A stretch of DNA of 64,000 bases from positions 52,324 to 116,323 of the forward strand of contig CAVOYK010000009.1 of the NCBI GenBank assembly GCA_963700665.1. Direction: 5' to 3'. Positions 1 through 20,513 of this stretch are shown in pieces; the stretch's first letter is position 1, and each line of letters begins with the position of its first letter. The stretch comes from an uncultured Actinomycetes bacterium. GTDB lineage: Bacteria > Actinomycetota > Coriobacteriia > Anaerosomatales > PHET01. The notes beneath the pieces were generated by a model, which ran no database searches, was not told where the DNA came from, and saw nothing but the letters and a program-made list of their open reading frames with translations. Made by a program: the position numbers and the translations under genes.

Positions 1-1827
1 CCCGCCGCCTGGAAGCCCCACAGCACGTTGTTGATCAGGGCGCGCTGCGCATGCTGATTGCCAGACGTGTTGCCTGCTGCAGCCAGCTGCGCCCCCGCGC
101 CGTCGTAGACCTGCAGGACGTCTTGGTTGTCGCCGCCTATCGCGACCGCTATCTCCGCCTTGCCGATACCATCAAGGTCACCCACCGAGGGTCCTCGAGG
201 GAGATGACCGTTGACGAGATACGAGCCGTCGAGCGCGAGGGAGCCGGAGCCTCCTGTGGCCACGACGATGCGGTTGTCGGCGTCAGCGGCGCCCGTGGTG
301 GTGGCCACGATATCGTCGGCGGTGGTCCCCACAACATCACCGGTGGTGATCCCGGTGATTGTGGACGTGGCCGAGACGGCAGCCACCGGGGCGAGCGCGA
401 CACCGTTCCACCGATACACCCTCAGAGTCGAGCCGTCAGCAGCTACGACCTCGTTGAGGTTTCCGATATCGCTGAGAACGTCGCCCACTGCGATGAAGGC
501 GGGCTCGGCCAGAAGCGTGAACGGTCCAGGCCTCGAGGTGACTCCCGCCAGAGCCGAGCGCCGAATGATCGACACGGTCGGCGACCCCGCACGAGTCACG
601 AGGACTTCCGCCTTGCCGTCGCCGTCGATGTCGCCGCTCGTCATCGGACCGATGTCAGCTTCCAGCGCAGGCCGAGGGCCGAGCAGGCTCGTCGACGCGG
701 CGGTCTGCCGCGTGTAGACCTGCGCCAACCCGTACTGCTTGAGGTTCGTCGCGGCCCCATAGGCCCCGACGACCTCGAGAACGGGCGCACCGGCCGTAGC
801 GTAGACGGAGGCCACGTCGGTCGCGATCGTCGAGCCGGTCCCGTGGCAGCCGTAGCACAGCCCGTCGCCGTCAGCCTTCGCGAGCTTGGCGATCGGAGCG
901 CCCGATCCGTCGTCGGCGCCCATCGCAACGTGGCACGTCTGGCATTCGCCGACGAGACGCTCGGCGTCCGGGTCGCCCACCGGCAGCCGTGTGGCCCACT
1001 CGGTGCCCACGGGGACCGTCTGCGATGTCAGCCCGTGAGAAGAGGCCTTGATGGACGAGCCCCCCGGCGTAGGTCGCCTGCGCATTCGCGTGACAGCCGT
1101 AGCACAACCACCGATCGTTTGCGGGCACGGCGGTCGTATCGGTCACCGACGGCGTGGGCGGAGCCAGTTGCGTGACGACGAGTGCCGTATTGCTGGAGCC
1201 GTGCGGCTCGTGGCATATCGAACATGTGATCTTCGTCCCATCCGTGCGAGCCAAGGCGCGCGCATGAGCGGTCTGGTCCCATACCGAGGTGCCCGGGAAC
1301 AGGTTTCCTGGTCGCACCCCGTGACACGCCGAGCAGTACGCGTCCCCTGAGCGGTAGTACGTTCCTGAGGGGTTTCGCGATTCCAGCAGCGCCGGATATG
1401 GGTCACCGTTCGTGTCGCGCTCGGACCCATGACTGTCGTGACACGAGTAGCAGCCCTTGGGTGAGGGTCCGTAGTCCGAGGTGTCCGGGGCGATCAGATG
1501 AGCGGAGTCCGACTGGAATTCCGTGTAGGTGTCGTAGTCAGAGCCGAGTCCGTCGTGACACGAGAAGCACAGCTGCGTGTCACCAGCCGCACCATCGTAC
1601 GTCCCGACGATCAGCGCGTTGACCTCCGCGCCGAGCGTCAACGTGGGATCGGCAGTGATCGTAGACGCAGAGGAGTGGCTTCGGTGGCAGATCGCGCACG
1701 TATCGGTGTCGCGAGTCAACGCAACGTGAGGGGTCACGGCCAGCGCCGGCCGTGCGGATAGAGCCGCTGTCGCGCACAACAGCGCCGCGGTCGAGACGAA
1801 GAGCGTTCTCCGAATCGTCCTCATCAT
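1..1827 (-). pseudogene. Secreted multihaem c-type cytochrome (8 CxxCH) fused to FG-GAP/VCBS-like repeats; 3' end runs off the window; 1 frame change
   Basis: ORF 871..1827 gives signal peptide MMRTIRRTLFVSTAALLCATAALSARPALA and motifs CAICH, CFSCH, CYSCH, CSACH, CSICH, CYGCH. My manual translation of the minus-strand frame from ~1060 to base 1 has no stop, so it is absent from the ORF track. It gives CQTCH and CYGCH, then repeats such as GDIDGDGKAEVLV and GDLDGIGKAEIAV. The frame change falls in the C6 run at 1061-1066. Confidence 0.8.
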
Positions 1828-1930
1828 GCGTCCCAGTTCCGCGCATCCTTCAGTGGCTCAACGGCTCGCGCCGACAAGCCTGCGGGTGGTACTCAAGCCT
1901 TCAGTGTAGCCCCTTGCACGCCGGTAGGCA

Positions 1931-4035
1931 TCACCGCACCGTCACATAACGCCAGCTGGAGTATGTCGGGAGGTGTCCGCCGTCGTCGTGATAGGCACGG
2001 ACACGCCACCTGCCCTTGTAGGGAATCGCGTAGCGTGCCTTGACCCGAGAATACGAGGAGTAGTTGTACGCGCTCGCATACCTGGTCGTGTAGTGACGCC
2101 ACTTGCCCTTGTAGTAGCGCTGGAAGTACATCTTCACGGGCTTGCCGGAGTGGCGTGGCTTCAGGTTGGCGTACCAGCTGTACGTCCGCTTGCGGTATAC
2201 CCTGCTCTTGTGCGGCCACGGCCTGCTCAGATACACCTTGGGATCGACGTAGCGGCTGACGGTCCACACGCCGTCGTAGCCCGTCGCGCCGGCGAAGAGC
2301 AGGCGGTAGTAGGTCTTGGTGTAGTTGTAGCCACTCGAGCTCGCGGGAACGGAGAACCGCACGTAGCCGTTCTCGTCCGTCTCCGCCGAGGTGACGTCGA
2401 TCCACGAGCCCGAGGTGCGCCCGGACAGTCTCTGGAGTATGACGGTCTGACCCTCCAACGGCGTGTCCCCACTCTTGAGAACACCGGAGAACGCAGCTGT
2501 GCGGCCGTAGGAAACCCGCTGGTAGCCGCTGAGGTACGAGAACCACGACGTCGCGTTCGCCACCGAGAAGTTGATCGTCTTCGTGGGTGACCAGTTCCCG
2601 TCTGCGTCCTTGACCTTGAAGGCGATGCTGTAGGGATCTTCGCGTGGTCCGAAGACTAGTTCTTTCGTCGCCGCGTTGACGGTCTGAGGTGCCCCGCCAT
2701 CCAGTCGATACTCGATGGCCGCGATGGGCTGACCGGGTCCACGTATCGGCGATGGTGAGCTGCTTCTCGGAGTGCTGGCCGTAGCCCGAACCCTGACCCA
2801 TCGGGTCCCACGCCTGGACTGCGTACGTGTAGGTGCCCGGCGCTGCGGCATCAGGCATCTCTCGGACGCTGGCTCGCTCCGACTCGCTCGTGAGCTCGGC
2901 CCATGCGCCGGTCCCGGACTTGCGCCACACGCGGTAGCTCATCGGGCGCGTATCGTCAGACGCATCCGTCGGCGAGTTGGGTGGGCGGCCCCACACGAGC
3001 TTCACCTGGCCCGAGTCCGTGCCCGAGAGGTTGACGGTGGCAGTTCCCTCGTAGTTCTCCTGGTAGTCCGCCATGGCAACCGGGATCCCGCTACCAGGAA
3101 CCAGCGACATCGAACCCGCGGGCACCGGGCCGTACTTGTAGCCAGATGACCTTCAGGTCGTCGATCGCAGGTCCTTGGCCGTTCTTGACGCCACCCGCGC
3201 CGGGGGTCATGTCGAAGAACTGGAACCACAGGGTACCCGCCTTGCGCGCGAGCTTGACGGTGTTGCCGTTGGACAGCTCGCGGGTCACGCCTTGCCACGA
3301 GCTCCCCGTGGGGAATCCGTAGACGCTCTCGTTGGTACCCGGGGCGCCCGATGCTTCCCAGTGAAGGCTGAAGATGTCGTTCGTGCCGAGGCTTGGCATC
3401 AGGTAGTAGTAGGAGAGCCACGACCGGTAGTACTCCGACAGCTGTGGCAGCTGGATGGTCGCACTGCCGCGCGTGCCAGAACTCGGCCACTTGTAGTTGA
3501 CGTAGACCGTGGCTCCGTTCGGAATCACCGTGTTCTTGCGAGCGATGGTCGTGTAGCCCTGGGCGTTCACGCGCGACCACGTAGTCCGTGTCCCTCTTGT
3601 ACTTGACGCCACCGACGGCCAGGCTCCAGACCTCTATGCTCGACACCTCGCCGCCGAAGGCCCTTGGAAGGTGAGGGCCGTGGGGTTGGTGCTGGTGAGC
3701 TTGATCGGCTCCCTCGTCTGCTGAACGTAGTCGTAGAAGGCAGGGTAGAGCGGGAAGAACGTCGAGGGGCCGAGCGTCGGGTACTGCTGCGTGCCGGCAC
3801 ACCACAGGCTGTATCCGGACGTGCCTCGACGTACGTTGGTGATCCTGCCCCAGTACGCGCGGGCAGGGCGCTCGCTGGGAATCTCGGCGAGGGCGAATCC
3901 GCCTGCATCCGAGTTGAAGTCCGCCGATACGATCGTCTGCTGCGCGGTGGGTGGATCACCTGCCCACGCGCTCGGAACGAGTGCGAGCAGAAGAGCAAGT
4001 GCGATAGCGACGATCCATGGACTTCTCGGAGGCAT
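1931..4035 (-). pseudogene. Secreted ~700-aa surface protein with FN3-like and Ig-like domains and a Tyr/Arg-rich C-terminus; at least 4 frame changes
   Basis: ATG at 4035 is preceded by AGGAGGG and followed by signal peptide MPPRSPWIVAIALALLLALVPSAWAG. Fragments 3634..4092, a short stretch of the 3002..3805 frame (FGGEVSSIEVWSLAVGGVKYKRDTDYVV), 3091..3612, 1893..3125 (VKLVWGRPPNSP...TYTYAVQAWDP) and 1931..2851 join into one protein. Confidence 0.6.
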
Positions 4036-4048
4036 TGCCGGATCCCTC

Positions 4049-4810
4049 CTACAGGGTGTCCGGGAAGGCCTTGGCAGCCTTCTCGGCTTCATTGCTCAGA
4101 CTCGACGGCTTTCCATCGAGCGTGGTCAGGACTACTTCGAACACGTAGCGTCCGCGCACGTAGACGACTGTCGCAAAGCGCGTGCCGTCAGTGCCGAAGT
4201 ACGCAGTAGAGCCGTCGACCTTGAGCGTCTTGGGGTTCTTGGCGTACAGGCTCTTGCTCACCTTGTTGACGAACGTGAGGGCGTCCTTGTTGCTCTTTCG
4301 GTAGTGAACCGCCCACAGCGCCCGAGATCCGATCAGGTCGGGTCCGTTTGGGGTCCCCGAGACCGTCGCATCGTCATCGACGACGACCTTCTGGCCCAAC
4401 GAGTAGCCTTCTGCTGACGGCGGCAGAAGCACGCCGAGATCGTCAGTTGGCTTGCTGAACGCCGGGTCGTCGGCCTTGGGGGCCGCAGGCTTCGGCTTCT
4501 GGCTGCTCGAGCTGCTTGCGCCGCCCGATGAGGAAGCCGCCGCGTTCGACTGAGTCGTCCGCGCGACCTGCAGAGTCTGCACCGCCTGTTGATTCGTCGG
4601 GTCCGCGGCGACAACCTGTTCGAGCAGGGCGATCGCTGCGGTCGTATCGCCCGACTGCAGTGCCAGCTGAGCACGTCCGTAGAGAAGATCAGCCTCGGTT
4701 GCGGCGTCGGTGGTGGCCGCGAGGTTGGTGTCGGGCGCCTGCGTGGCCTGTGGCTCAGAGAGGGCCGATCCGACAACGATCACACCGGCCAGGATCAGCA
4801 CACCGACCAC
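4049..4810 (-). CDS. Membrane-anchored protein with TPR-like segment, Ser/Ala/Pro linker and C-terminal globular domain
   Basis: 253-aa ORF with TM helix VGVLILAGVIVVGSAL and LYGRAQLALQSGDTTAAIALLEQVVAADP. The in-frame upstream stretch to 4903 encodes a basic tail but has no canonical start codon, so the true start is uncertain. Confidence 0.5.
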   Translation of the reverse strand: MVGVLILAGVIVVGSALSEPQATQAPDTNLAATTDAATEADLLYGRAQLALQSGDTTAAIALLEQVVAADPTNQQAVQTLQVARTTQSNAAASSSGGASSSSSQKPKPAAPKADDPAFSKPTDDLGVLLPPSAEGYSLGQKVVVDDDATVSGTPNGPDLIGSRALWAVHYRKSNKDALTFVNKVSKSLYAKNPKTLKVDGSTAYFGTDGTRFATVVYVRGRYVFEVVLTTLDGKPSSLSNEAEKAAKAFPDTL

Positions 4811-4906
4811 GCCCGCGAGAACGCCCCGCGCCTTCTTGGGAACCCTCTCGACCAGACGCGCGAGGCCTCTTCGAATCTCGGATACTTGTCTGAACTCTCC
4901 TGCTCA

Positions 4907-6264
4907 CTACGCTCCAGTTCCCTCTGTGGCAACGGCTCGTCCCGCCTCCAGGGCGTCGTCGTCCAATGAGGCGGCTCCTCGTGACGCAGCATCCTCGATC
5001 GCCGCGGCAGCCATCGTCACAAAGGAAGTCAGGCTTCCTTGGGCTTCCCTCGCAAGTTCTGCGAGCACGGGGTCTGCCATCGTCATGGGAGGTTGCGAGA
5101 TCGACGCAGCTTCAAGCCACAAGTCGATCATGTCGACTGCTATCTCATCTGGCGCGTCCTGGAAACGCTCCAACCCCGGGAAGTCCCACTTGAGCTGTGT
5201 GCCGGCCGCGAACTGCTCTTCGAGTTCCGGGACTCCGCCCTCGTCAAGCAGGAAGACGAAGACCGCGTCGATCCTGCAGCATCCAGCGCATCTCATTGAG
5301 CGTCACGACGATCGTCTGGCGCAGTTCCGGGGCGATCTGCATCCAGCTCTCGAAGCTGTCGTAGATGATCACCAGCTTGTCGAAGCGGGTGGTGGCCAGG
5401 TTCGCGACAGCCGAGAGGGTCTTTCGCGGAGCCTTGGTCACCTTCCACTCGGTCGACAGCGCAGCAAGCCCGCGATCGCGATAGACGCGCAGGCCGCGCG
5501 CAACCACCTTGGACAGGTGGGTGGAGGTGTACTCGATCAAGATAGTCGACGACCGCCTGCCGCTTGAGGTCTTCTTCCTCTTCGGCCGAGGGAATGGCGG
5601 CGGCCGTCCCCGGGGCGTCGCCGATCGTGACGTCCACCTCGGCAGAGTCCTCCGACTCGTCGGCGTCCTGATCCAAGCCCGCGACGCGGATGTCGGCCAA
5701 CTGCGCCAGCGCGGGCTGTCGCTCGATCTCAGGCGTCCCAAAGTACTCTCGAGTGACCGCGACCGGATCCGCCGCGAACAGGTCTGCGAACTCGGACAGT
5801 CCTTCTGCGCCCAAGACCTGGAAGGCAGCCAGCTGCTCGTCAGGCTCGGCGAGCATCGTCGCGATGTAGGAGGCAAGCGTCTCATCGAAGGAGCGGAAGG
5901 CGACACGCTCCCCAACGGCTCCCAGCGTGGAGCGCACGCGTCCCTTGCGCATCATGTAGAGCTGGATGTAGGCGTGAACCACGTTCAGCGAGTCGTCGCT
6001 GCCGATGGCGTGCTCGACGTTGCCGATAGCGCGCAGCGAGTACGAGGAGGGGACTTCGGCTCTTGGAGACGACGATCGGCTTGGCCTCGATCGGTCGCGG
6101 CGGCCGCGGCGATCGCAGCAAGCAGGCGATTCGAGGCGGCCGCGACTTCGAGAAGGGTTCCCAGTGCCCCAACCTTCCGTTGTAGGAGCTGCGAAGGGAT
6201 TCGCGACCAGCCCCAAAGAGCGGTACCGAGCAATGTCGTGGGAAGCTTCCGAGTCGTTCGTCAC
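4907..6264 (-). pseudogene. Hypothetical ~450-aa acidic cytoplasmic protein, possibly a degenerate P-loop NTPase-like fold; at least 5 frame changes
   Basis: GTG at 6264 follows GAGGAGAG. Stitching frames of ORFs 5293..6417, 5985..6233, 5882..6364, 5244..5915 and 4907..5296 gives MTNDSEASHDIARYRSLGLVANPF..., a Walker-B-like KLVIIYDSFESW and an acidic linker DQDADESEDSAEVD. No intact Walker A is visible. Confidence 0.3.
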
Positions 6265-6377
6265 GGTCTCTCCTCGAATCGTGGTCGAAGTACGTTTCAG
6301 CATAGCGTGATGTGATGGAGAAGCTGTGTACGCGGTGCGTGATGAACCTGTGCGCTCCGTGCACGACAGCCGACGAA

Positions 6378-6406
6378 GGGCCCCGGACCGTTTGGTCCAG
6401 GGCCCC
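6378..6406 (-). terminator. GC-rich hairpin about 50 nt downstream of the hydrogenase-operon cytochrome
   Basis: Plus strand reads GGGCCC-C-GGACC-GTTT-GGTCC-A-GGGCCC: 6+5 bp stem with one mismatch and a 4-nt loop. There is no clear U-tract. Confidence 0.45.
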
Positions 6407-6456
6407 ATCGTCCTCAACAGGTCTCGAAGAGCAGACCCGCAGCGCTCAGATGAACG

Positions 6457-7824
6457 CTACTTGTTGTGGCAACGCTCGCACACGCCGCGCTCGTTGGCAC
6501 GGAGCAGTGCGCTGGTACCGACGATAGCCGGATCGCCAGGGATGCCAGGTGCACCGGACTTGTCCGGGCTCACGCCAGGAACGCCGTCCTGGACAGGAAC
6601 GACCGTGCCGGCCGAGTTCGTGGTCAGGCTAGCTGCAGCCCATCCGCTCATCGACGTGGAGGCACCGTGTGCCCTGTGGCAGGTCAGGCAGCCGATGTAG
6701 TTCTGGTAGAAGAGCGAGGTGTCGCCAGGGGTGTTGCCCTCGTCAAGCTCGAGCGGCACCCAGTCGCCGTCTTCTCTGACCTGCTCCTGCAGAGCACGGC
6801 CAGGACCGAAGCCGGCGGCCAGCGTGACGTCAACCGGGTGACGGTGACGACGCTGAGCACCAACAACGCCGTCCTCCGAGTTCGGAGCACCGGCGCTGCC
6901 GTCGTAGTCATACGTGGCCAAGAGACCACCGTTGGCGGCGGTGTTGCCCGCAGACGTGGCGTAGTTCTCGTGGCACGCAGCACACCAGACCGACATCGAC
7001 TCGGCACCGGTAGCATCCTGGTGCAGGATCTTGGTACCGCCGGTGTAGTCCGGCTTGTAGGCCGCCATCTGAGCAGCGCCGTCCTCGTGCTTCAGCCAAC
7101 CCTTGTTGGCGCCCGCAGGATCCGGGTAGCCGGTCTCGTACGAGAACACGAACGCATCCGGGGTCTCGCCGTCGGCCTCGTAGCCACCGACGGTGTTGCC
7201 GTTGACCTCAGCCTTGAGCAGGCGGTAGTTCGACGTGCCGTGAGGATCGTGGCAGTCGGTGCAGGTCAGGTTCGCCCACGTCGGGCACGGAGGTGCCGGC
7301 GCCCCAGAGGGGACCAGCGGCTTCCATGCTGTGAGCCGACGTGGCAGCGGCGTAGCTGACAGTCGCGCGTGTCTCCCACACGTACGGGTCTGGCATCTGA
7401 GTGAAGCCACCACCGTTGAGCGGAGCGTCGAACGTCGACTCGGACTCGTACTGCGACGACAACGCCGCCGTTGTCCGCCGCCGACGAGCATCGCCGATCA
7501 GCACCCGTGGGGCCGCAGTCGAAGACGCCGGAAACGACGTTGGTCGAAGCGCCAGGAGCGAGGTCGCCGTGACACGCGTTGCAGAACTCGGTCATCGTCG
7601 TCGCGGAACCGACGAGCAACGCGCTCTCGTGCTCGGTGCCGAGCTGGTCGGTCCAGCCGACGAGTCGAGAACGACGTGTGTGCGCGGTGACAACCGGCAC
7701 ACGAATCAGTGTCGTCGACGTAGCCACCGTGAGGGCCGAAGTTCGCGTAGGCCGCCCCGGCGAAGACGAGCGACAGACCGATTGCCAGAACGAGAATGGT
7801 AGAGATTCGCTTCAAGATCTTCAC
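6457..7824 (-). pseudogene. Secreted multihaem c-type cytochrome (at least 6 CxxCH), third gene of the [NiFe]-hydrogenase operon; at least 3 frame changes
   Basis: Signal peptide MKILKRISTILVLAIGLSLVFAGAAYA, then GPHGGYVDDTDSCAGCHRAH. Further motifs are CNACH, CTDCH, CAACH, CLTCH and C-terminal CERCHNK. Fragments are 7498..7824, 7266..7727, 7208..7504 and 6457..7491. The SD AGGAGG lies between the hydrogenase large-subunit stop (7835) and the start. Confidence 0.75.
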
Positions 7825-7834
7825 CTCCTAGTGG

Positions 7835-9793
7835 CTAGTGGACCGCGCAAGCGATGCACGGGTCGAAGGACTGGGCAACACGCAGGGCCTCGACTCCACC
7901 CTGGCCGGAACCGGCGGTCCCGTCCTGCTTGGTGAAGCTGCCCGAGTTTCCGGCGTACGGAACACCGATCATGGCCTGCTCGATCGGGCCACGGTTGCCA
8001 AGGTAGTCCTTGGGCGAGACGTTCCACGTCGTCGGAACGATGCACTGGTACTTGGTGATCTTGCCGTTGACGATCGTGCACTGGTGCATGAGGGCACCAC
8101 GCGGAGCCTCGGTGCCGCCCCAGCCCTGCTTCGTGCCAGTCGGGATCGGCTTGTCTCTTCCACGTATCGCCAGTGGCGTACTTGAGACCACCGATCCAGC
8201 CAGCCGTGTCGTCCGCGCCGAACGCCAGCGTGGCGCCGGACTTGTCGACGGCACCGAGAATCGCCTGAACGAGGACGAGCGACTCGAGTGCGCGAGCGCG
8301 AAGGCGGTCGATGGTGGAGAGACCACCGTTGATGCCGACCACGTGACCGGCAATGGCGCCGCCGATGTAGGAGCCGGCCTCGCCGTAGAGTCCCGAGATC
8401 GTGGCAGCCGAGCCAGGACCGGTGGGACAGTTGGCCTGAGTGACCGGCACTCCGAGGCTCGAGCCCTCGAGCGTCGCCAGACCCGCGCGAATCAGCGCGA
8501 CGGCGATATCGGCAGCGACCATCTTGGGATCGAGACCCGCAAGCTTGGTGTAGTGCGCGTGTAGCCAGGAACCGTTGCCGGCAAGCGGCGTACCGTCGAT
8601 CGGATAGTAGCCGGCGACGACGAGGCGAGCGAACGGACCGACCTCGCGAGCGACGCCGCCCCAGCGCGGGGCCTTGATGTACGTGTAGCCGTTGGCACGA
8701 TTCGGCTCGGTGCGGGAAACGTCACCAGGATAGGCCTGGCAGGTTCGCCATCGTACTCACCGAGGCTGTCGCGCGTAGCGCGAGTTGGTGATGTCCTCTT
8801 GAGGTTCGTCGGGACGCTGTTGGCGCCAGCGACGAAGTTCGCGAGAACGCCGGCCTTGTCGGTGACGACAAAGTCGGTTCCGCCGGCCGGCTCCACCGGT
8901 CCACACGCCACCGGGAAGGGCGAGCGTGTCGTCGGCGGGGTTCGGGAACGCGCCCCACGCGAGGAAGTTGCCCACGCCGGCGCCGTAGCCCAGGCCGCCG
9001 GTGTTGTTGGTGTTGTCGAACGTCGGGTAGAGCACGCCGAGCGCCAGAACGATCGGCACGTACTCCTGGACGACGAAGCGTCCGACCTCTTCCATGATCG
9101 CACGGAACTTGTCGCAGCGTGTCGGCGAGGTCTTGCGGTCTTGTCGACGGTGACGCCGCCACCGATGTAGCACGAGGTCATCGGCATGCGTCCGGCGAAC
9201 AGCGCGCCGGCCTCGAAGGTGAGGCGACGGATGCGCAGCGCCATGACGTAGCTGCGGATGACGGTCGACCAGACGTCGGTCGAGCAGGCCATCGTCGTTG
9301 TCCGGAACGCGCACGGCCGTTGGACAGCAGCGCTGCGGTGTAGTCGGCGGTGGCGAAGTACGGGGTCCACGGCGGAATGGCCGGGCCCTGAACGTAGCTC
9401 GGTGCAGCCAGGTGATAGAAGTGCGTGATGCTCGACATCAGGAACTCGGAGCCCAGCACGAGGTTGCGGATGTAGACCGCCTTGGCCGGCACGCCGTAGG
9501 TCCCGTCGTCGGCGAACGTGATGTGGTTCTGGCTGTAGCCGAGAACCGCGTCAGCGGCGTACGTCGACGTCATGCCGTGAGGAACCGGGCAGACGCCGCA
9601 GATGCGCTGCGTGAACGTGATCGCGTCGTTGACCTCGCGGCCGAGCAGGAAGTTCTCGAAGCCACGCCACAGGTTGCCGTGGACGTCGGCTTCGGTGATG
9701 ATTCCGCCGGCCTCGGTGACCTTGACGCCCAGGTGACCCTCGATACGTGAGATCGGGTCGACTTCGATACGTTGCCTAGCTCGATCTAGCCAT
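7835..9793 (-). pseudogene. [NiFe]-hydrogenase large subunit; at least 7 frame changes
   Basis: ATG at 9793 follows GGAAGGAGGG. Manual translation gives RIEVDPISRIEGHLGV and RICGVCPVPHG (N-terminal Ni-binding motif). The C-terminus is SFDPCIACAVH followed by a stop. Fragments from ORFs 9178..9573, 8492..9370, 8757..9314, 7821..8522 and 7835..8353 lie in all three frames. Confidence 0.85.
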
Positions 9794-9814
9794 TATTCCC
9801 TCCTTCCCAGTTCT

Positions 9815-11159: not shown

Positions 11160-11456
11160 ACTCTCTCCTCCTTCACATTACTCGTGAACAGTCCTCAAAT
11201 TGCATACGTGCCCGTGACTCCGAGCGTGACGAGTAAGAAAACGCCACCTCCTTTCGATCCACAGCTCAGAGGACCGGATGGAGATGGCGCGTCATCGACG
11301 CTATGAAGGCTGCTGGCGGACCCTTACCCTTGCGACGACTAGACTGCAGCGAGGTATGAGACGTCTCCGACCAGGCGGGTCTTCGTGCCGGCTCCAACCC
11401 GTTGGTCCTTCTCGGAATACCCCTCCTTCTCGGGTAACGGTGCACGTGCGAACGAC

Positions 11457-11508
11457 TTGTAACAGAAGTTACAACTGAGACTCTAAGCCCTGCGACGCCC
11501 TGCGTCAA
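11457..11508 (-). promoter_or_regulatory. Putative sigma70-type promoter (TTGACG-17nt-TAGAGT) followed after 5 nt by palindrome TTGTAAC-N4-GTTACAA
   Basis: Read on the minus strand: -35 at 11508..11503, -10 at 11485..11480, perfect 7-4-7 palindrome at 11474..11457. It lies about 300 nt upstream of the hydrogenase small-subunit ATG in a visibly lower-GC 455-bp gap. Confidence 0.45.
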
Positions 11509-11614
11509 CACCGAATCTCCATCACGAGTCCAACAGTTCTCCGAACGACTTCTCAGCTCCACTCGCGCAATGCGCCCCCGAGGGCTCATGCCGACCCCGG
11601 GGGCGCCGTGACGT

Positions 11615-13137
11615 CTACTCTTCGATCGGACCGTCAGTGGGCTGGTCCGCCTTCTTCGTGAAGCGCTCGATGAACTCGACGCGGTTGACGACGTCGACTT
11701 CGAGCGTCTTGGCCAGACGCCGCAGCTCGGCGTCCTCGGTGGCGAAGACGCGCGAGCGCTGCGCAAGCGACAGGACGATCGCCTGCTCCTCGGTGATCTC
11801 GAGCTTCTCCACGAGCGCCCGGACGTCGGACTCCGAGTACTCCATCTCGGTGAGCAGCTCGCCATGTCGACGTCGTCCTGCGTGATGTCCTTGAGCCGCT
11901 CGTAGTCCTCGGCGGTCACGAACCACTCTGCGGTTGCGAGCAGGCATGAGATGCGCCTCCTCGTTGTCCACCATGATCTGGACGAAGTCCGCGGTGGCGA
12001 AGAACTTCTTCTTGCGCAGCAGCAGCAGCAGCGGCAGGAGCAGCAGCGGCAGCAGGCACCAGCCACCAGTTCTGCGGCAGGCGGGGAATCGGCACCGGGG
12101 AGACCTGGTCCGGCCAGCCCCACACCTGCACGCGCCCGTTGGCCGTGTCGGTGATGAAGATCTTGTTGCGCCCGCCGACGCTGACGCCGTTGGGATAGCT
12201 GAACTCGCCGTCGAGCACGCCCTGCTCGCCGAAGTTCACGAGCTTGTCGCCGTCGGACGACCACATCGTCCCGTCGTGTGCGAGCGTGTCGACCACGACG
12301 AAGCGCGCGGTCTTGGTGGTCTCGTCCGACGGGAACGGCGCCAGGAACGAGATGCCTCTCGGCAGACCCTGGGTCACGATGATGCGATCGAACTCTCCGT
12401 TCTTGTCGAAGACCTGCACGCGACGGTTGTTGCTGTCCGTCACGTAGACCTCGTCCGCGGCTGAACGCGATCCCGTTGGGGAACTGGAAGAGCTCGGGCC
12501 CTGCTCGGCATCGTCGACGATGCCCGAGCGTGCCCACCGACTTCTGGAACTCGCCGTCGGGGTTGAAGATGAGCAGCCGGTGGCCGTTGAGGATCTCGGT
12601 CACGTACATCGTCCCGTCGTCGCCGAACGCGATCGCGACCGGCGCCCACTGGACTCCCGCCGGTCTCGAACGTCGGGCAGCTCGTCCTTGGGCAGCTTGG
12701 GGTCGAACTCGCCGCAGGTACTTGCCCGTCGGGCTGAAGATGTGGATGGTGCGCGCGCGCCGGTCGGACACGTAGAAGTTGCCGTCCTTGGGGTTCTTGG
12801 CGATGTAGAGCGGGACGACCGTCTCAGACGTGCCGAAGCTCCGCAGGTAGTCCCCGTCGGGATTGAAGACGCCGATCGTGTGGCGCGCCGAGTCGACCAC
12901 GTAGACGTTGGCGCCGTCGGCGAGCACGCCGACCGGACGCTGCATCCGCTGATCGGCCGCGCCGCCGTTGAACGAGTAGAGGAACTGCGGCGGCTCGATG
13001 ATGTCGCCGCTGACCGGGGCGATGTCGAACCCGAGCTTCTGCGTGCTCTGGTAGTACCTGTAGTAGAGCGCAAGGAGCAGCAGCAACAGCAGCATCGTCA
13101 CGACTATCACGATCTTGCGCTTCTGTGCCTTGGTCAA
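11615..13137 (-). pseudogene. Membrane protein: N-terminal TM, extracytoplasmic NHL-repeat beta-propeller, second TM, ~130-aa cytoplasmic C-terminal domain; at least 5 frame changes
   Basis: TTG at 13137 follows GGAGG. Sequence begins MTKAQKRKIVIVVTMLLLLLLLALYY. NHL-like blades include VYVVDSARHTIGVFNPDGDYL, FYVSDRRARTIHIFSPTGKYL, MYVTEILNGHRLLIFNPDGEF and IFITDTANGRVQVWGW. The second TM (LLPLLLLPLLLL) is encoded by a (CAG/CTG)n run at 12017-12055, where one frame change occurs. The tail comes from ORF 11615..11974. Confidence 0.65.
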
Positions 13138-13174
13138 CTGAGCCTCCGGTTCGATCAGTCGACGGGCCGACTGG

Positions 13175-14323
13175 CTACTTCGATGCCTTCTTCAGTCGAG
13201 CGACTGTCTTCTTGAGATCCTCGTTGGCGGGGTCTTCCTTGAGTGCCTTCTGGTAGACCGCGAGCGCGTCTCGTGGGTGCTCGGACTCGATCTGAGCGAT
13301 GGCTGCGAGGACGGCAGCGTCCTTCGCATCGATCGCGAGCCCCTTGCGGTAGACCTCGAGTGCGTCCCGGAAGTCCTTGCGCGCCAAGAGCACCTCGCCG
13401 TGGGCCTTGACCGCTTCGACGCTCTTGGGATCGAGATTCGTCGCGATGAGCGCCGCGTCGAGCGCCTCGTCGATCGAGCCGGCTTCGAGCTCGCTGCGCG
13501 ACCGTTCAACCCAGTCGGACGAGGGGCCGAACGCCGCCAGCGCCTCCTGCGGCAGCTCCTCATCGGGAGCGAGGTTCGCGGCCTGGAAGAAATGGTACGA
13601 GGCGTTGACCTTGTCGCCCTTCTGCTCGTAGACCTGCCCGAGCGTGTAGTGCGCCTCGGCGAAGCCCGGATCGAACGCGAGGGCGAACTCGAGATTGGAG
13701 ATCGCCGCGTCGTAGTCTTCCAGACCGCGAAGCGCGCGCGCGAGGTAGCAGGTAGGTGTCCGAGGCGTCCTTCCGGATGCGCAGCGCGCCCTTGAAGTAG
13801 CCGGCCGCCTCCTCGTACTCCTCTTGCTGCAGCGTGATCACGCCCAGGTTGTACAGCGCATTCTCCCGGCGCTCGTCGACCTGCGAGAACTGGGCCGCCT
13901 TCGGTGAGCTCCAGGACCTTCTTGAAGTAGAGCTTGGCCTTGTCGTCCTGATCGTCGAGCATCGCCACCATGCCCAGATCGAGATAGGCCCCGATGTGCT
14001 TGGGGTCGATCTTGAGTGCGGCGTTGAACTGCTCGATCGCCTCGGGGTACTTGCCGGCAGCACCGAGCGCCTCGCCGAGCCTCACGCGCAGGATCACGTC
14101 GTTCGGCGACTTGCGTACCTGCGCCTCGAGGGCCTTGATGACTCGAGTGGGTGCGTTGGTCAGCTCCTGGCGCTGCATGTTCTGCCACACGCGTGTAGCC
14201 GAACCACGCCGGCCAAGCGCAACGACGGCGACCACGAGCGCGACAACGGCCACGTTCAGGCCGGTATCGAGACTCCTGGCGGGGCTCAGCTGGCTGCGGC
14301 ATCTCCTCGTACGCTTCAGTCAT
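13175..14323 (-). pseudogene. Membrane-anchored TPR-repeat protein; at least 4 frame changes
   Basis: ATG at 14323 (MTEAYEEMPQPAEP), TM helix VAVVALVVAVVAL, then repeated TPR units from ORFs 13192..14253, 13560..14063 and 13175..13393 (e.g. AIEQFNAALKIDPKHIGAYLDLG and ALEVYRKGLAIDAKDAAVL). Confidence 0.65.
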
Positions 14324-14406
14324 GCTCTCTGCAACCTCGATTCGTCTCTGGCGCGGAACGACAGAAGCCTGGCCGTGCCAAGCACGAGCACAGAGGTAGA
14401 TGCAAA

Positions 14407-16001
14407 CTAGACTCCAACGTCCGTGTGACAGCGAATACAGAGCGACGCGCCCTTGTAGGGGGCTATCTGCCGGTTGAACGGGTCGAGCGCACCGTGGCAA
14501 TCGTAGCAGAGCCGCAAGTCGTGCCCTTGCTGTGCAGCCGCCTTCTGGGCCGCCTCGACTCTCACCAAAGCTCACGTGACACTCGTAGCACTTGTAGGGC
14601 TTGCCCTTCTCTTTGGCAACGTTGAAGTGAACGGCGTGCTCGGCGATCCCCTTGTGCTGGATCGACGTCGCCGGCTTCTGCTTCGCGATCGGGTGACACG
14701 GCGACGCAGTTCTTCTCGACCAGCTCGGCGTTCTTCACGTTGCCGTGGTGGCAGTCTTGCAGCTCTTGCGGTCACGATGGCAGATGAAGCAGTCGCTCGA
14801 CTCCGACGCCCGGAGGCGGCCTGTGGTCGGCGATGAAGGCCGGCGTGTGCGGGACCACGGTCTGGTGACACCTCTGGCACGACGGGCCCGTGTGGCAGAC
14901 CCCGCACGTCCAGGAGCCCTCAAGGAAGAGCTTGCCGTGCTGGCTCCGCCACTTCGCGTCCTTGTGGTCGGCCGGGAATCACCGGCTTGTCGGGGGCGTA
15001 GGGTCCGCTCCCCTTGCCGTTGTGACAGTCGATGCAGAACTTCTCCCCGTGACACATCGCGCAGTACGCGGGGTCTTTGAGCGCTCTGTTCTTGTGCTTG
15101 CCCTTGGCGAACTTCTTCGTGTGGTTGGCGGGCTTGAGTTCGAACGACTTGGGGTGGCACTTGTCGCAGTCCTCTGTTGCGATCTGGCCGCCTCTCGCGT
15201 GCTGGAGTCCGTGACAGCGGTAGCACGACAGCATGTCGGGCGTCTGCACGCCGTCGGGGTTGTGCGGGAACTCCTGGTGACACGCCTCGCACTGGTAGTT
15301 GCGAACGAGGTGGTCGGCGTGGGCGAAGATCACCGTCCCGGGAGTGATCGCGTCGAGGTCGGGGTGACAGTACACGCACTGCGACATCGAGACCGGGCCG
15401 TCGGGGTAGATCTTGACCGACGGCGTCCTTGGGTCGCGGCTGGAACACCGTGTGGTAGGCGTCGGGCATCTCGGGTACGTCCGGCGCCTCGTCCGCATGA
15501 CACTCGTTGCAGTCGGTCGATGCGTTGTGGCACATCATGCACGAGTTGACTCCCTGCGCGATCGCCGGCCTTGGCATGAGGCTTCTTGGCCCAGTCGTCG
15601 CCGTGGTCCTTGGGACGCAGATCGAATGACTTGGTGTGGCAGTCCTTGCACTCGCTCGTGGCCAGCTCGCCTTGGGGGCCGTGCTCGACTCCGTGGCAGG
15701 CGAAGCACACCTCCATGGGGATGCGCTCGGTCACGCCGTCTCTGTGCGGCAAGCGCGAGTGGCAGCCGTCGCAGCTGACCAGCAGGTGGTTGCCGTGACT
15801 GAACTTCAGCCCGGGCACGTTCACCGATCCAAGATCCAGGTGACACGGTGCGCACTGTGTCGGCTCGACCGGCGCCGCTGTGTCGATCACCGGGTCCTCG
15901 GCGGCGTCTCCCATGGGCGCGGACGCAAGCAGGAAGGCGGCCGCGATAGCAATCGCGACCACCCCCCAGAGCAGTAGCCTTCTGTTGGTCCGGCGCAGCA
16001 A
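14407..16001 (-). pseudogene. Secreted multihaem c-type cytochrome with about 20 CxxCH motifs; at least 6 frame changes
   Basis: TTG at 16001, sequence MLRRTNRRLLLWGVVAIAIAAAFLLASA. Motifs by manual stitching of ORFs 15330..16001, 14735..15577 and 14920..15498 plus other frames: CAPCH, CDGCH, CFACH, CKDCH, CMMCH, CNECH, CVYCH, CEACH, CYRCH, CDKCH, CAMCH, CIDCH, CGVCH, CQRCH, CFICH, CKDCH, CVACH, CYECH, CYDCH, CIRCH. Stop is TAG at 14407. Confidence 0.7.
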
Positions 16002-16032
16002 CCCTGCCGCCCGTCTCCTTATGTTGCGACCC

Positions 16033-17344
16033 CTAGCCGCCGCCGGTGATTCGCGAAATCAGCTGCAGCAGCGGATTGTCCTGGGTCTTCTGCGCTTTCG
16101 TATGGATGAGCTCAGCAGCAGCCGCGCCAAACTGCTCGTTGGAGCCCTGATGGCATCCTTCTTTGCCGCACGTCTCCCCGACGTTGGCGGGATTGACGCT
16201 CGATTCGGGGTCTTCTTTGGACAGCACTTTGTGTGAGTTGTGGCAGTCCCAGCACGCCGGCGCGTCGGATGCGCCGGACTTGTACGCCCTGCCGTGGTAG
16301 TAGTCGTCGTAGGTGTCGTACTCGTCGCCGTGCTGCTTGCAGCGCGCGCACACGCGATACGAGGACATGTGCATCCGCTGCTTGGCGAGCTCGGTGTCGA
16401 GGCGGTAGATGTAGTGGCCGCCATGGCACGACCCGCACGTCGCCGAGTCGTAGTTGCCATCCTCGAGCGCCGCCGCATGGGTCGACTTGTTGTACGCCGG
16501 CACCACGTCGCTCAGGTTCTTCTCCTTCTGCTCCTCGTGACAGGCGCCGCACGCATCACTGGCGTTGACGGTCCACAGCTGACTCGCCTGCGCCTGGTCG
16601 TCGTAGCGGTAGTCGGGGTGGCACTCCTGACACGTGACGTCGGTGTGCGCCGAGGCGTTCAGGCCAACGACCTCGAACGACCTCATCCCGGTGGCCGAGC
16701 GCTTGTTGAGCGCGTCTCCGTGGCACGCAAGGCACCCGTCACCGGCGTTGTAGTCCCAGCTCGCGGGCGCCCAGACGACACCCTCTTGGTCGTGACACTC
16801 GGTGCACGACTCGGGCTTGTGGCACATCGCGCACCTGGTGTTGAACTCCTTCTCGGCGGGAGCCACGTGCTCCTTGCCTGCCCAGCCGTACGTGTGGAAG
16901 GCGGGACGCAGTCGCTCCTTGGGGGTGACGTGGCAGTCCTCGCATGCGTCAGAGGCGATGATGCCCATCGGCCCGTGCCGTACGCCGTGACAGTCGAAGC
17001 AGCCCTTCATGTCCGGCCGCTCGATCGTCGCGTCCGCTCTGTGAGGGAAGCGCGGGTGACAGGCGCTGCACGACACGAGCTGGTGATAGCCGTGCTGGAA
17101 GATGATCGACGACGAGTAGTTCTTCGTCTGCGCGATGTTGCCATGGCACGTCAGAGTGCACGCGTCCTTGTAGACCGGCGTGTCCTGAAGCGTCTGGAAG
17201 AGCTGCTCGAACGATTGCGGGTCGGCATCGGTGGGTGCCTCGGCGGCCATCGCGACGCTCGCACCGAGAACCGCCGGCGAACGCCAAAGCTGCGAGAGCG
17301 ACCCCGAGCATCCTGCCGAGGCGATGTCGGAACCTGATCGCCAT
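16033..17344 (-). pseudogene. Secreted multihaem c-type cytochrome (10 CxxCH plus CX3CH, CxxCK and CX4CH variants); 1 frame change in the signal peptide
   Basis: ATG at 17344, MAIRFRHRLGRMLGVALAALAFAG. After a 1-nt shift near 17270 it joins AVLGASVAMA-AEAPTD of ORF 16033..17559. Motifs: CTLTCH, CSACH, CFDCH, CEDCH, CAMCH, CTECH, CLACH, CQECH, CGACH, CGSCH, CARCK, CWDCH, CGKEGCH. Confidence 0.75.
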
Positions 17345-17387
17345 GTCGTCGTACCCCTTCTTCCCTGCGGAGCGGACCCCGCAAACG

Positions 17388-18307
17388 CTACTGGAACAAC
17401 GCTGCTATGTTCTCCAGCGCCGCCGAAATACCTTGCTTCGCCGAGTCGTAGAGTGCCCACAACGGGTTCTGCTCGAGAGCGTCTTGCTTGCCGTGAATCA
17501 GCTCGGCGTACTCCACGAACTCCTCGTTCACGTCCTGGTGGCAGCCCTCTTGCCCGCACGTCTCAACGAGATTGTCCGGGTGGACGGGCGAGGCCTTGTC
17601 GCTGGCGGGCAGAACCAGATGGGCGCCGTGACAGTCCCAGCAGGCTGGGGCGTCCCACGGAGCGCCCTCCCGATAGGCCGCACCGTGGTAGTAGTCGCTG
17701 TAGGTCTCGGCGCCGTCCGTGTGGCAGTCGCCACAGATCTCGATGCCATCCTTCTGGAACGCCACCTGTGCGGCAGTGTCCTCCTTCGACGGCACTGCGT
17801 GACCTCCGTGGCACCCGCCGCACGTCGGGATCTCGGTAGGCTTCCCCTCGGCCTCTCGCACTGCGGCCTGCTGCTCGGCCGTGACGTTGGGCGGGAGAAC
17901 CGGCGAGTGCGCGACCGCCGTTGATCTCATCCTTCTGCCCGACGTGGTCCTTGCAGCTCTGGCACGACGCTGTTTGCCACCGCCTTCCACGCGTAGCTGT
18001 CCCCCGCGTTCTCGTGCGGAGTCTTGAGCGCGAAGTCGACGTGGCAGCCCGTACACAGAGCCTCAGGGTGAGCCGACGCGTCCAAGACCACCTGGTCAAC
18101 GTAGAGCGACGACGTCGTCTCCGCGCTGGTCTGCTGCAGGCCGGGATCCCCATGGCACACCATGCAGCCGGACTTGCCGGCCGTGGGCAGCGTCCAGTCC
18201 AGGTTGTAGGTCCGGCTCGACTCCTTCGACGAAGCCGCGTACGCCGCACACGGCAGCAAGAGCAAGAACGCCGCAACCAAGACCACTATGGCGTGCCGTG
18301 CTCTCAC
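17388..18307 (-). pseudogene. Secreted multihaem c-type cytochrome, shorter paralogue of 16033..17344; 2 frame changes
   Basis: Signal peptide MRARHAIVVLVAAFLLLLPCAAYA. Motifs CMVCH, CTGCH, CQSCK (in a short frameshift-flanked segment), CGGCH, CGDCH, CWDCH, CGQEGCH. The C-terminal half aligns by eye with the neighbouring paralogue (YYHG.AY..G...APACWDCH). Confidence 0.7.
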
Positions 18308-18324
18308 GTGCGCGCGAACCTCCC

Positions 18325-19149
18325 TTATGCGTGTTCTGCCGACGCGTACGAGGGAGCCGGCTCGTGACCGTCTCCGCCGTGCTCGTCTTCGTCAGTGTGT
18401 GCAACTTTCCGGCCGAGACCGCTCATACCGAAGAAATCAAGGAACGCCGGGAAGTCCTCGGTGACCGAGAGGTACACGTGGATCGTGGTCAGGATGATGA
18501 AGAGCCAGTTCACGATGTAGTGGCCGGTCCGAACCCAGAAGATGCCCTCGGCGCCGATGAGTCCGGCGGAAAGCTGGTACAGACTCGCGTTGATGATCGG
18601 CAGCGGCAGACGCCACAGCATCAGACCCGTGATCGCCTGCACTATCAGAAGCGGCACGAACAGCGTGTAGGTGCCCTTCTGCATGACGTTGTACTTGCCG
18701 AGGTGGGGCTTGGAGGGCTTGACGAAGATGTAGTAGAGGATGACTTGGGGCGCGGTCGTGATGTCGCGCTTGGTGATCGCGAACTCCTTGTAGTCACGCT
18801 GCCGAGAGGCGAACGCGTACCACAGGCGCCAGATGAGGTTCACGATCACGATCCACATGAAGATGTAGTGGGCCCAGCGCATCGGAGTCCGGTTGAACTG
18901 GGGGAACCGGATGAGCAGGCCCGTGACGGCGAGCATGATCATGCTGAAGACGTGCATGAAGTGAAGGAACTTGGGCAGGAAGGGAGGATGGCTGTCGTGG
19001 TGAGGCCATTCCCACTGCTTGCCAAAGCGGCGCTTCGCGCGCCCGCTCAGGATATTGCCGATGAAGTGACACGACAACGCGATCAAGATGACCACGTAGA
19101 GCGACGTGAACACCACATCGAGCCAGACATTCAGTTGCGTCAGTCCCAT
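18325..19149 (-). CDS. Integral-membrane b-type cytochrome (Ni/Fe-hydrogenase CybH / FdnI-like family)
   Basis: Intact ORF with ATG at 19149 (MGLTQLNVW...). It has multiple TM helices with His residues (HFIGN, HFMH, HYIFMW, HYIVNW, IHVYL). It is the first gene of the cytochrome operon. Confidence 0.6.
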   Translation of the reverse strand: MGLTQLNVWLDVVFTSLYVVILIALSCHFIGNILSGRAKRRFGKQWEWPHHDSHPPFLPKFLHFMHVFSMIMLAVTGLLIRFPQFNRTPMRWAHYIFMWIVIVNLIWRLWYAFASRQRDYKEFAITKRDITTAPQVILYYIFVKPSKPHLGKYNVMQKGTYTLFVPLLIVQAITGLMLWRLPLPIINASLYQLSAGLIGAEGIFWVRTGHYIVNWLFIILTTIHVYLSVTEDFPAFLDFFGMSGLGRKVAHTDEDEHGGDGHEPAPSYASAEHA

Positions 19150-19266
19150 CGACTGACACCCCCTACTCCCGTGTCGCGCCCGGCCTGGGCATGATGACCC
19201 CTCAGCTCCCGTGGCGTGACTCCACCTAGCGACGCTGTCCGGGCGCCGAGATACGGGGCTGAAGGC

Positions 19267-19315
19267 TTGTAACACCAGTTACGAGCAGAATAGGGGCGCT
19301 GAGCAGGAGTGTCAA
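19267..19315 (-). promoter_or_regulatory. Putative sigma70-type promoter (TTGACA-17nt-TATTCT) followed after 2 nt by palindrome TCGTAAC-N4-GTTACAA
   Basis: Read on the minus strand: -35 at 19315..19310, -10 at 19292..19287, palindrome at 19284..19267 (plus strand TTGTAACACCAGTTACGA). It lies about 130 nt upstream of the cytochrome b ATG. Confidence 0.45.
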
Positions 19316-19329
19316 CGAGAACGCAGTCT

Positions 19330-20467: not shown

Positions 20468-20498
20468 AAGCGCATGCCTTCCTCGGTGACTGAAACGA

Positions 20499-20513
20499 TA
20501 AGAACAGACTATG
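20499..20513. promoter_or_regulatory. Candidate LysR-type T-N11-A box ATAAGAACAGACTAT
   Basis: Dyad ends ATA...TAT with T-N11-A spacing, 32 nt upstream of the lysR start, in the lysR/fur divergent region. Confidence 0.25.

Follow-up and report, generated by a model that had tools for sequence, protein, structure and literature searches.

Periplasmic NiFeSe hydrogenases reduce c-type cytochromes, including cytochrome c3. Cultured relatives of the organism considered here, members of the Anaerosomatales, use H2 or formate for growth, and one of them does so with Fe(III); isolates carry a compact group 1i ‘Coriobacteria-type’ operon that encodes a large subunit, a small subunit, a cytochrome b and a protease (PMC9686372). 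Homologues of the Geobacter cytochrome OmcS have been reported in Geobacter, Geoalkalibacter and Anaeromyxobacter (PMC10954620), and genes for NHL and TPR proteins accompany multihaem cytochrome clusters in the monoderm Dethiobacter (PMC10376724). Herein, we compare with these and other described systems a cluster of hydrogenase and multihaem cytochrome genes located at one end of a 64,000-nucleotide (nt) stretch of contig CAVOYK010000009.1 from an uncultured actinomycete (assembly GCA_963700665.1). This whole stretch is hereafter called the window, and all coordinates are window positions.

The cluster was mapped by tblastn with proteins encoded in L001 and L002, two intact homologous clusters, and by frameshift-aware alignment of proteins to DNA. 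Fourteen collinear minus-strand genes run from position 19566 to base 1 (Table 1), and the content, order, strand and haem counts of the single-strand 19-kb cluster described in the initial annotation are thereby essentially borne out. All five of its cytochromes carry N-terminal signal peptides, as had been stated, and we likewise saw no porin- or channel-like gene in the cluster. The genes are not resolved by gene calling based on GC content at third codon positions alone, and in a six-frame reading of positions 1-19600 the CxxCH haem motifs and the coding signal hop among the three minus-strand frames. A Pfam scan of the raw frames nevertheless recovers PF01292, PF01058, PF14720, TPR, NHL, FG-GAP and several multihaem families, together with pieces of PF00374 in three frames.

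We hold with moderate confidence that this locus is a functional respiratory cluster found throughout a lineage of uncultured Coriobacteriia-like Actinobacteria, indel-ridden in the window assembly, that would couple extracytoplasmic H2 oxidation via an OmcS-like cytochrome and a multihaem relay to both menaquinone and the cell surface. In the proposed mechanism, a [NiFe]-hydrogenase that is exported by the twin-arginine translocation (Tat) pathway and lacks an anchor would oxidize H2 at the outer face of the cytoplasmic membrane. Its electrons would pass to the operon partner, the OmcS-like hexahaem cytochrome (MHC_D), rather than to a cytochrome b subunit, and from there to a relay of secreted 7-, 13- and 20-haem cytochromes (MHC_A, MHC_B and MHC_C). 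An inward branch would lead from the relay through a di-haem cytochrome b to menaquinone, forming an energy-conserving half of a redox loop as in FdnGHI and HyaABC, and an outward branch would lead through an FG-GAP cytochrome (MHC_E) and wall-associated proteins to insoluble acceptors. The TPR and NHL proteins are envisaged as dedicated partners of the OmcS-like cytochrome that serve in its assembly, anchoring or spacing, as probably are two further proteins, unk450 and unk270. The electron path and its direction, the protein locations, the polymerization of the OmcS-like cytochrome and the conservation of energy are all features that we infer. An H2-linked envelope conduit had already been suggested in the initial annotation, and this proposal is strengthened by the conserved gene order, a shared operator, the anchorless cytochrome-c-type hydrogenase and the CWB2 domains of homologous surface proteins.

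Judged by its sequence motifs and Pfam matches, the enzyme is a group 1 Tat-exported uptake-type [NiFe]-hydrogenase, and it can be assigned to the anchorless, cytochrome-c-reducing type. The large subunit (HydL) carries the motifs RICGVCPVPH (N-terminal) and DPCIACAVH (C-terminal), and its homologues match PF00374 with an E-value of 2.7e-296. The small subunit (HydS) begins with the Tat-type sequence MAITRRQFV, and its L001 orthologue matches TIGR01409. HydS stops at ...CMACTEKGYPDSFVPFVAR, right past the last cluster motif, and lacks a transmembrane helix; the C-terminal anchor is absent in the window as well as in L001, L002, L007 and L009. For both subunits, the nearest solved relatives are the periplasmic NiFeSe hydrogenases 1cc1, 4kl8 and 2wpn, and group 1a (E 1e-63) ranks ahead of groups 1b-1e. 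The active-site residue is cysteine, not selenocysteine. Approximately 20 base pairs (bp) separate hydS from hydL and hydL from the MHC_D gene, a spacing typical of genes for a three-subunit unit.

In the window and in L001, L002, L007 and L009, HydL ends at the histidine of DPCxxCxxH (DPCIACAVH in the window) and has no protease-cleaved extension, which implies that it matures without being cleaved at the C terminus in the usual way. No hydrogenase protease gene was found in the cluster in the window, L001 or L002. HydL homologues (P0001-P0120) range from 629 to 934 amino acids (aa) owing to a variable internal insertion.

These features place the enzyme nearest to the periplasmic hydrogenases of Desulfovibrio and Desulfomicrobium, with which it shares a Tat signal, the lack of an anchor, a presumed c-type acceptor and very haem-rich relay proteins; a further likeness, to Hmc, is the HmcB-like FeS subunit of the type II loci described below. 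It differs from them in its cysteine active site, its much longer subunits (~445 and 640-930 aa), the lack of a C-terminal extension and protease, a hexahaem OmcS-type partner in place of tetrahaem cytochrome c3, and a monoderm host. HyaABC, Wolinella HydABC and FdnGHI resemble the locus in having extracytoplasmic catalytic subunits and a PF01292 cytochrome b with the di-haem histidine pattern. However, the arrangement here is not HyaABC-like, as HydS has no anchor or docking helix, and the cytochrome b gene is located five genes upstream of hydSL in another transcription unit. The group 1i operon of the Anaerosomatales belongs to the same broad lineage and is likewise expected to function in H2 uptake (PMC9686372), but the present locus has neither a protease gene nor an adjacent cytochrome b gene and instead provides a cytochrome c partner.

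The relationship of MHC_D to OmcS became evident from a profile built from 36 homologues and searched against the Protein Data Bank (PDB). Geobacter OmcS (6ef8_A; also 6nef) is matched with an E-value of 1.5e-13 and 53.7 bits over OmcS residues 9-406 of 407. The only other PDB cytochrome at E<=1 is 9yuq_N (E 0.0045), a 218-aa ‘putative multiheme cytochrome c’ deposited with 16 chains, which may be another filament-forming cytochrome. A single-sequence phmmer search of the PDB with MHC_D did not find OmcS. The similarity extends beyond the haem motifs, because the best of 300 OmcS shuffles with CxxCH motifs held fixed scored 19.7 bits vs 53.7 bits for the real sequence. For global alignment, the OmcS sequence was rebuilt from the profile alignment, with its first eight residues supplied separately. 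Three gap settings yielded 106-131 identities over 350-378 columns, or ~30% identity, and placed the six CxxCH motifs in register (consensus positions 15/54/161/252/337/403 vs OmcS positions 9/47/140/239/328/400). The two proteins also have in common the conserved flanks CxDCHDPHG, WCAxCH and CLxCHRAH and the C-terminal RxxCxxCHxK. On these grounds, we assign MHC_D to the OmcS family.

The first motif, C39-x-x-C42-H43-x-x-H46 (CxxCHxxH), is invariant in the 36 MHC_D sequences and pairs with OmcS C9..H16 in the global alignment. OmcS His16 is the residue that we take to be a ligand to the haem of the next filament subunit. A far-reaching possibility is that MHC_D polymerizes like OmcS into a filament across or beyond the monoderm actinobacterial wall. 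This filament would be charged directly by the docked hydrogenase, or by an FdnGH-like enzyme in sister loci, with the TPR, NHL, unk270 and unk450 proteins forming a new assembly and anchoring machine that is independent of an outer membrane. We regard this prediction, which is drawn from the sequence relationships just described, as doubtful; if true, it would provide the first enzyme-wired cytochrome nanowire and the first nanowire of this kind in Actinomycetota.

The likeness to OmcS of Geobacter sulfurreducens comprises a similar length, six collinear CxxCH motifs, the CxxCHxK end and, in the global alignment, the CxxCHxxH histidine. In 2025, Shen et al. reportedly described an osc cluster beside omcS, said to encode a beta-propeller(-like) OscD, a prolyl-isomerase OscH and channel-like OscEFG proteins and to be ‘widespread and ancient’. 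A beta-propeller gene, that for the NHL protein, also stands beside the cytochrome gene in our locus. A SurA-like peptidyl-prolyl isomerase gene occurs in the window at 56410-57477, far from the cluster. The differences are a monoderm host without an outer membrane, the lack of porin- or channel-like OscEFG genes, an identity of ~30% and the position of the OmcS-like gene directly behind a hydrogenase or FdnGH-like enzyme. In the OmcS literature that we read, we found no mention of OmcS in Actinobacteria or in linkage with a hydrogenase, though the study by Shen et al. might cover part of this ground.

The locus is conserved across the lineage. A stitched HydL query yields more than 1400 relatives, the best of which is 72% identical, and the few named matches are metagenome-assembled genomes (MAGs) of Coriobacteriia or ‘Actinobacteria bacterium’. 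The L001 and L002 contigs contain intact clusters in exactly the order of the window, from the Se/S-carrier-like gene through a surface protein with CWB2 repeats, with the FG-GAP cytochrome present in L002. Such type I loci, which have cytochrome b and MHC_A to MHC_C upstream, comprise the window, L001/L003, L002, L006, L008, L010 and L011, along with partial examples in L004 and L005. The whole gene set appears in conserved order in many related genomes, and at least eight genomes besides the window have it intact, the synteny in related genomes and MAGs that the initial annotation proposed to check, even though protein identity among the collinear clusters falls to ~45-50%.

In type II loci (L007 and L009), the cytochrome b/MHC_A-C module is replaced by four genes that encode a formate dehydrogenase-N alpha-like subunit, an FdnH/HmcB-like four-cluster FeS subunit with a C-terminal anchor, an MHC_D paralogue and a polytopic membrane protein. 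The TPR, NHL, HydSL, 6-haem cytochrome, unk450, FG-GAP cytochrome, unk270 and surface protein genes are retained. A unit of FdnG-like, FdnH/HmcB-like and second OmcS-like genes, parallel to HydS-HydL-OmcS-like, was observed in L007 (1-5632), L009 (1-5617), L062, L065-L072, L074, L077 and L079, and in sister loci it is often followed by a polytopic membrane protein without a family assignment.

A metagenome scan with the MHC_D profile gave 77 loci, 63 of them with upstream DNA. Among these 63, the gene directly upstream of the OmcS-like gene codes for HydL in 43, for an FdnH-like FeS protein in 13 and for an NHL protein in five. A separate scan of contigs with two narrow NHL peptide patterns identified three loci. 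L084 (7806-12879) contains a stand-alone TPR-NHL-OmcS-like-OmcS-like module among unrelated neighbours on a contig of 67-69% GC; its tandem cytochromes are ~30% identical to MHC_D and are reminiscent of omcS-omcT. Because of the neighbour counts and this stand-alone module, we judge from gene order that the TPR, NHL and OmcS-like genes are the most constant association, or core, with a donor-oxidizing enzyme, a hydrogenase in some loci and an FdnGH-like enzyme in others, placed between them.

The membrane end of the proposed path begins with cytochrome b. Its invariant histidines are located at positions 63/66, 94, 210 and 224. As in FdnI, 14 residues separate the last two, and because these four membrane histidines follow the FdnI/HyaC pattern, the protein probably serves as a di-haem wire through the membrane to a quinone site. 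A single-sequence search of the PDB with cytochrome b found no relative. The pairing of a HydC/FdnI-type cytochrome b with a multihaem cytochrome c at the membrane is reminiscent of Geobacter CbcL, and the analogy to CbcL drawn in the initial annotation is sound at the level of domains. It does not extend to a fusion, as CbcL is a single polypeptide, whereas cytochrome b and MHC_A are encoded by adjacent separate genes in all loci. An ImcH/CymA-like module, also mentioned there, is not present inside the cluster; two multihaem genes of the NapC/NirT type are located 11 kb off. These intact genes (30560-31534 and 31710-33241, both on the plus strand) encode a transmembrane helix followed by 10 and 22 CxxCH motifs, respectively. 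The 22-motif gene is made of repeated di-haem units and is followed by response regulator and histidine kinase genes (33736-35842). The two proteins are candidate quinol dehydrogenases for an outward route.

The same hydrogenase and cytochrome b are also compatible with a more limited function, in which the cluster would be only an H2 (or formate):menaquinone oxidoreductase similar to Hmc, Qrc or Tmc. In such a system, the OmcS-like protein would be a monomeric acceptor akin to cytochrome c3, the 7/13/20-haem relay would lead inward, and no electrons would leave the cell, which would use them for ordinary anaerobic respiration or CO2 fixation. A hydrogenase of the anchorless periplasmic type, a cytochrome b whose histidine pattern suits electrogenic quinone reduction, and the exchange of cytochrome b and MHC_A-C for an FdnG/FdnH(HmcB)-like pair and a polytopic membrane protein in type II loci all accord with this possibility, which would also conserve energy, unlike a direct flow from H2 to an acceptor on the outside. 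However, ~50 haems, an OmcS-family protein, an FG-GAP cytochrome longer than 1000 aa and a wall-binding-repeat protein, all syntenic with the core, go far beyond what a periplasm-like relay requires. The OmcS relationship, the FG-GAP cytochrome and the wall-binding protein would be left unexplained, and the two NapC/NirT-type proteins could oxidize quinol and so supply the second half of a path outward. We therefore consider a function restricted to quinone reduction to be possible but unlikely.

Several observations nonetheless weigh against our preferred reading of a cluster that serves both menaquinone and the cell surface. In L010 and L011, no FG-GAP cytochrome is present, and among loci the surface protein differs in its C-terminal domains. 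The ‘outer’ part is accordingly not as well conserved as the core, a variability that also suits a quinone-only function. The split of electrons between menaquinone and the surface is speculative, because a direct flow from H2 to an acceptor, both outside, would conserve no energy. The HMMER local alignment pairs MHC_D motif 2 with OmcS motif 1, a shift by one that leaves the N-terminal register unsettled. The AlphaFold2 monomer model of MHC_D is poor (predicted local distance difference test score, pLDDT, 44) and unusable, and therefore OmcS-like folding and polymerization are predicted from sequence. No filaments are known from the OmcS paralogues of Geobacter. The copy of the cluster in the window itself carries ~55 frameshifts, and the proposed function, electron direction and localization are read from sequence. 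Finally, cytochrome b could work in either direction.

In a reversed operation of the cluster, the surface cytochromes and the OmcS-like protein would take in electrons from a cathode-like donor, Fe(0), reduced minerals or a syntrophic partner, for H2 evolution or delivery to the quinone pool. One report (PMC7848899) describes extracellular hydrogenases that make H2 from Fe(0) in methanogens. Moreover, either direction is possible in principle for [NiFe]-hydrogenases and multihaem chains, and gene content leaves the direction unfixed. We still judge such a reversal to be very improbable here, given that group 1 Tat-exported enzymes are typically uptake enzymes and that the OmcS midpoint potential is well above that of the H+/H2 couple. 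To make H2, the system would thus have to work uphill, unless the H2 pressure were very low or the donors very reducing. The OmcS midpoint potential has been reported to be higher than earlier values (PMC10954620), and cultured relatives consume H2 (PMC9686372).

The secreted cytochromes and their companions give the cluster its resemblance to the conduits of Thermincola potens (OcwA), Carboxydothermus ferrireducens and Dethiobacter alkaliphilus, which likewise rely on secreted multihaem cytochromes arranged in chains within a Gram-positive envelope and, in Dethiobacter, have co-clustered NHL and TPR genes. MHC_A, MHC_B and MHC_C are composed of c7/c3-type units, with 7, 13 and 20 haem motifs in intact homologues and 6, 12 and 19 readable in the window, respectively; the density in MHC_C is one haem per ~26 residues. 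Full-length homologues of MHC_E are 1000-1170 aa long with 13-14 haems, and the L002 copy exceeds 1093 aa. When MHC_B, MHC_C, MHC_D and MHC_E were searched by phmmer against all PDB chains, no cytochrome was found at E<=0.1 except for a marginal match to the small cytochrome c 6hr0 (E 0.027). Neither OcwA nor another solved terminal reductase was matched; OmcS is the only solved multihaem cytochrome matched in the PDB sequence searches with MHC_B to MHC_E, and we found no description of a hydrogenase within a monoderm multihaem cluster in the literature on such conduits. A polysulfide-reducing multihaem selenoenzyme (PMC13510729) was considered as a relative and ruled out, as it has five haems and another architecture.

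Some of the accessory proteins exhibit distinctive characteristics. The NHL protein has an unusual layout, with an N-terminal transmembrane helix, an extracytoplasmic propeller, a second transmembrane helix and a conserved cytoplasmic tail of ~130 aa. The cytoplasmic protein unk450 has no signal peptide, carries a near-invariant N-terminal LGLxxNPF sequence, and has 95 relatives, of which the named ones are all from Coriobacteriia. Its structural model is confident (pLDDT 91), and Foldseek gives weak matches to AAA+/ORC/TnsC proteins (best E 0.029, TM-score <=0.25). A profile search of the PDB found no relative of unk450, and its Walker A/P-loop is apparently degenerate; a designation of this modelled fold as ‘AAA+-like’ is accordingly a weak one. 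The NHL protein and unk450 might interact across the membrane. The protein unk270 had been described as a TPR-like membrane protein, and while the membrane anchor is present at its N terminus, its TPR matches are sub-threshold only. Similarly, the surface protein annotated initially as ‘FN3’ lacks Pfam support for that label and gives only a weak Ig-like (Big_1) match. Its homologues contain CWB2 cell-wall-binding, PKD and Ig-like domains and end in three CWB2 repeats, and the window copy is without CWB2. The Se/S-carrier-like protein is a possible member of the system.

The spacer before hydS (300-480 nt), in the same position in L001-L011, is conserved across loci whose proteins are only ~50% identical. 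In the window, it contains a promoter-like site (TTGACG-17-TAGAGT, 11508-11480) and an exact 16-bp palindrome (TGTAAC-N4-GTTACA, 11473-11458). All of the first 11 related loci contain the exact palindrome once, upstream of hydS, as do 12 of the 15 metagenome loci. A copy with one mismatch (TGTAACACCAGTTACG) precedes cytochrome b in six type I loci (the window, L001, L002, L005, L006 and L008), and copies with two mismatches are found upstream of the TPR gene in several loci. Because copies precede hydS, cytochrome b and TPR, the arrangement argues that the sub-operons are co-regulated through a shared putative operator.

Also present in the hydS leader are an invariant small hairpin (GGGTTGGAGCCGGCACGAAGACCC; GGGTT[GGAGCCGGCACGAA]GACCC) and a 9-bp hairpin (GCCAYCTCC...GGAGGTGGC) followed by a T-run, ~80 nt before the start codon. 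From this series of elements, the leader may consist of an operator and an attenuator. A search of Rfam with the leader found no family, even at E<=1, its folding energy is no better than that of shuffled sequences (z 0.45), and covariation is minimal; given these results, we do not claim a riboswitch. A gene for a LysR-type regulator (19577-20521, minus strand) adjoins the cluster, as it does in L011; this protein or a Rex/CRP-like factor is a candidate for binding the palindrome.

As suspected in the initial annotation, the damage to open reading frames is real and heavy, with ~55 frameshifts between positions ~1047 and 17968 (~3 per kb) revealed by frameshift-aware alignment. Such a concentration, next to intact mfd, selA, selB, enolase and two multihaem genes, might indicate that the cluster in this particular genome is a decaying relic of true pseudogenes, whatever its function elsewhere. 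However, 45 of the frameshifts are of the ‘one extra base’ type, and only one in-frame stop was found in well-aligned genes, inside a poorly aligned stretch of HydL. Under real decay, numerous substitutions and nonsense codons would be expected, along with a deletion bias, and therefore the frameshifts look like assembly errors. The repaired proteins match intact homologues at 50-90% identity, with haem motifs and metal ligands preserved. In addition, the housekeeping pyruvate kinase gene elsewhere in the window is likewise frameshifted, and the long-read MAG L005 (MFD03804.bin) exhibits similar damage in its own copy of the cluster.

This spectrum suggests that the 17-kb stretch is a locally unpolished patch of a long-read or hybrid assembly, and it may correspond to a low-coverage long-read bridge. 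We consider true pseudogenes, the condition under which the initial annotation would have been set aside, to be very unlikely. The frameshifts do not sit in long homopolymer runs, and homopolymers offer no explanation for them. The other 44 kb of the window is mostly intact, including mfd (1254 aa) and a LysR gene. Frameshifts are far fewer outside the patch, with sites at ~53110 and ~46900 that apparently affect pyruvate kinase and a TPR/GH42-like gene.

Table 1. Window coordinates and characteristics of the cluster genes and associated putative regulatory elements
Feature	Position	Strand	Remarks
Se/S-carrier-like small protein (PF11823)	19333..19566	-	Intact; just upstream of cytochrome b in every type I locus
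One-mismatch palindrome upstream of cytochrome b	19268..19283	.	Operator-like
Cytochrome b, HyaC/FdnI family (PF01292)	18325..19149	-	Intact; 274 aa; extra N-terminal helix; zero CxxCH
MHC_A, secreted cytochrome c, ~7 haems, c7/c3-type domains	17388..18307	-	2 frameshifts
MHC_B, secreted cytochrome c, ~13 haems	16033..17344	-	1 frameshift, in signal-peptide region
MHC_C, secreted cytochrome c, ~20 haems	14407..15950	-	7 frameshifts
TPR protein, N-terminal helix as membrane anchor	13265..14323	-	3 frameshifts
NHL beta-propeller protein	11615..13137	-	7 frameshifts
Conserved hydS leader	11160..11508	-	Promoter-like site, palindrome, two hairpins
HydS, [NiFe]-hydrogenase small subunit	9815..11159	-	Tat signal; 9 frameshifts
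HydL, [NiFe]-hydrogenase large subunit	7835..9792	-	At least 7 frameshifts
MHC_D, OmcS-family hexahaem cytochrome	6457..7815	-	Starts ~20 bp past HydL; 3 frameshifts
unk450, cytoplasmic, without Pfam family	4913..6264	-	5 frameshifts
unk270, N-terminal transmembrane anchor and extracytoplasmic domain, without family assignment	4052..4860	-	
Secreted surface protein, conserved N-terminal domain and Ig-like modules	1931..4011	-	Several frameshifts
MHC_E, large secreted cytochrome, FG-GAP repeats	1..1797	-	8 haem motifs within window; runs off base 1

Other genes in the window were also noted. Genes for a CbiM/CbiQ-type energy-coupling factor transporter (20975-22648, plus strand) are divergent from the LysR gene and might serve to import nickel or cobalt for the hydrogenase. 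A selenocysteine toolkit is present and consists of tRNA-Sec (30451-30547), selB (35875-37821), selA (41950-43395) and a selD-like gene of the AIR-synthase family (44460-45449).

All the building blocks of the locus are of known kinds. Relative to the literature that we found, what appears from gene order and sequence relationships to be new is the hard linkage of an OmcS-family gene to a hydrogenase or FdnGH-like enzyme, its presence in monoderm Actinomycetota, and the constant TPR, NHL, unk450 and unk270 companions. The finding touches on two open questions, namely how respiratory electrons pass through a thick Gram-positive or actinobacterial wall and how cytochrome nanowires are charged, and the locus is a concrete, widely conserved and directly testable candidate for both. 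The always-linked accessory genes for TPR, NHL, unk450 and unk270 constitute a small set that is amenable to knockout or heterologous expression, and the locus can serve as a genetic marker of H2-driven reduction of metals or humic substances by Coriobacteriia of the subsurface and of sediments. The assignment of MHC_D extends the OmcS family to monoderm Actinomycetota, and the exchange of donor enzymes points to a modular architecture, with a cytochrome module that accepts a hydrogenase or an FdnGH-like enzyme.

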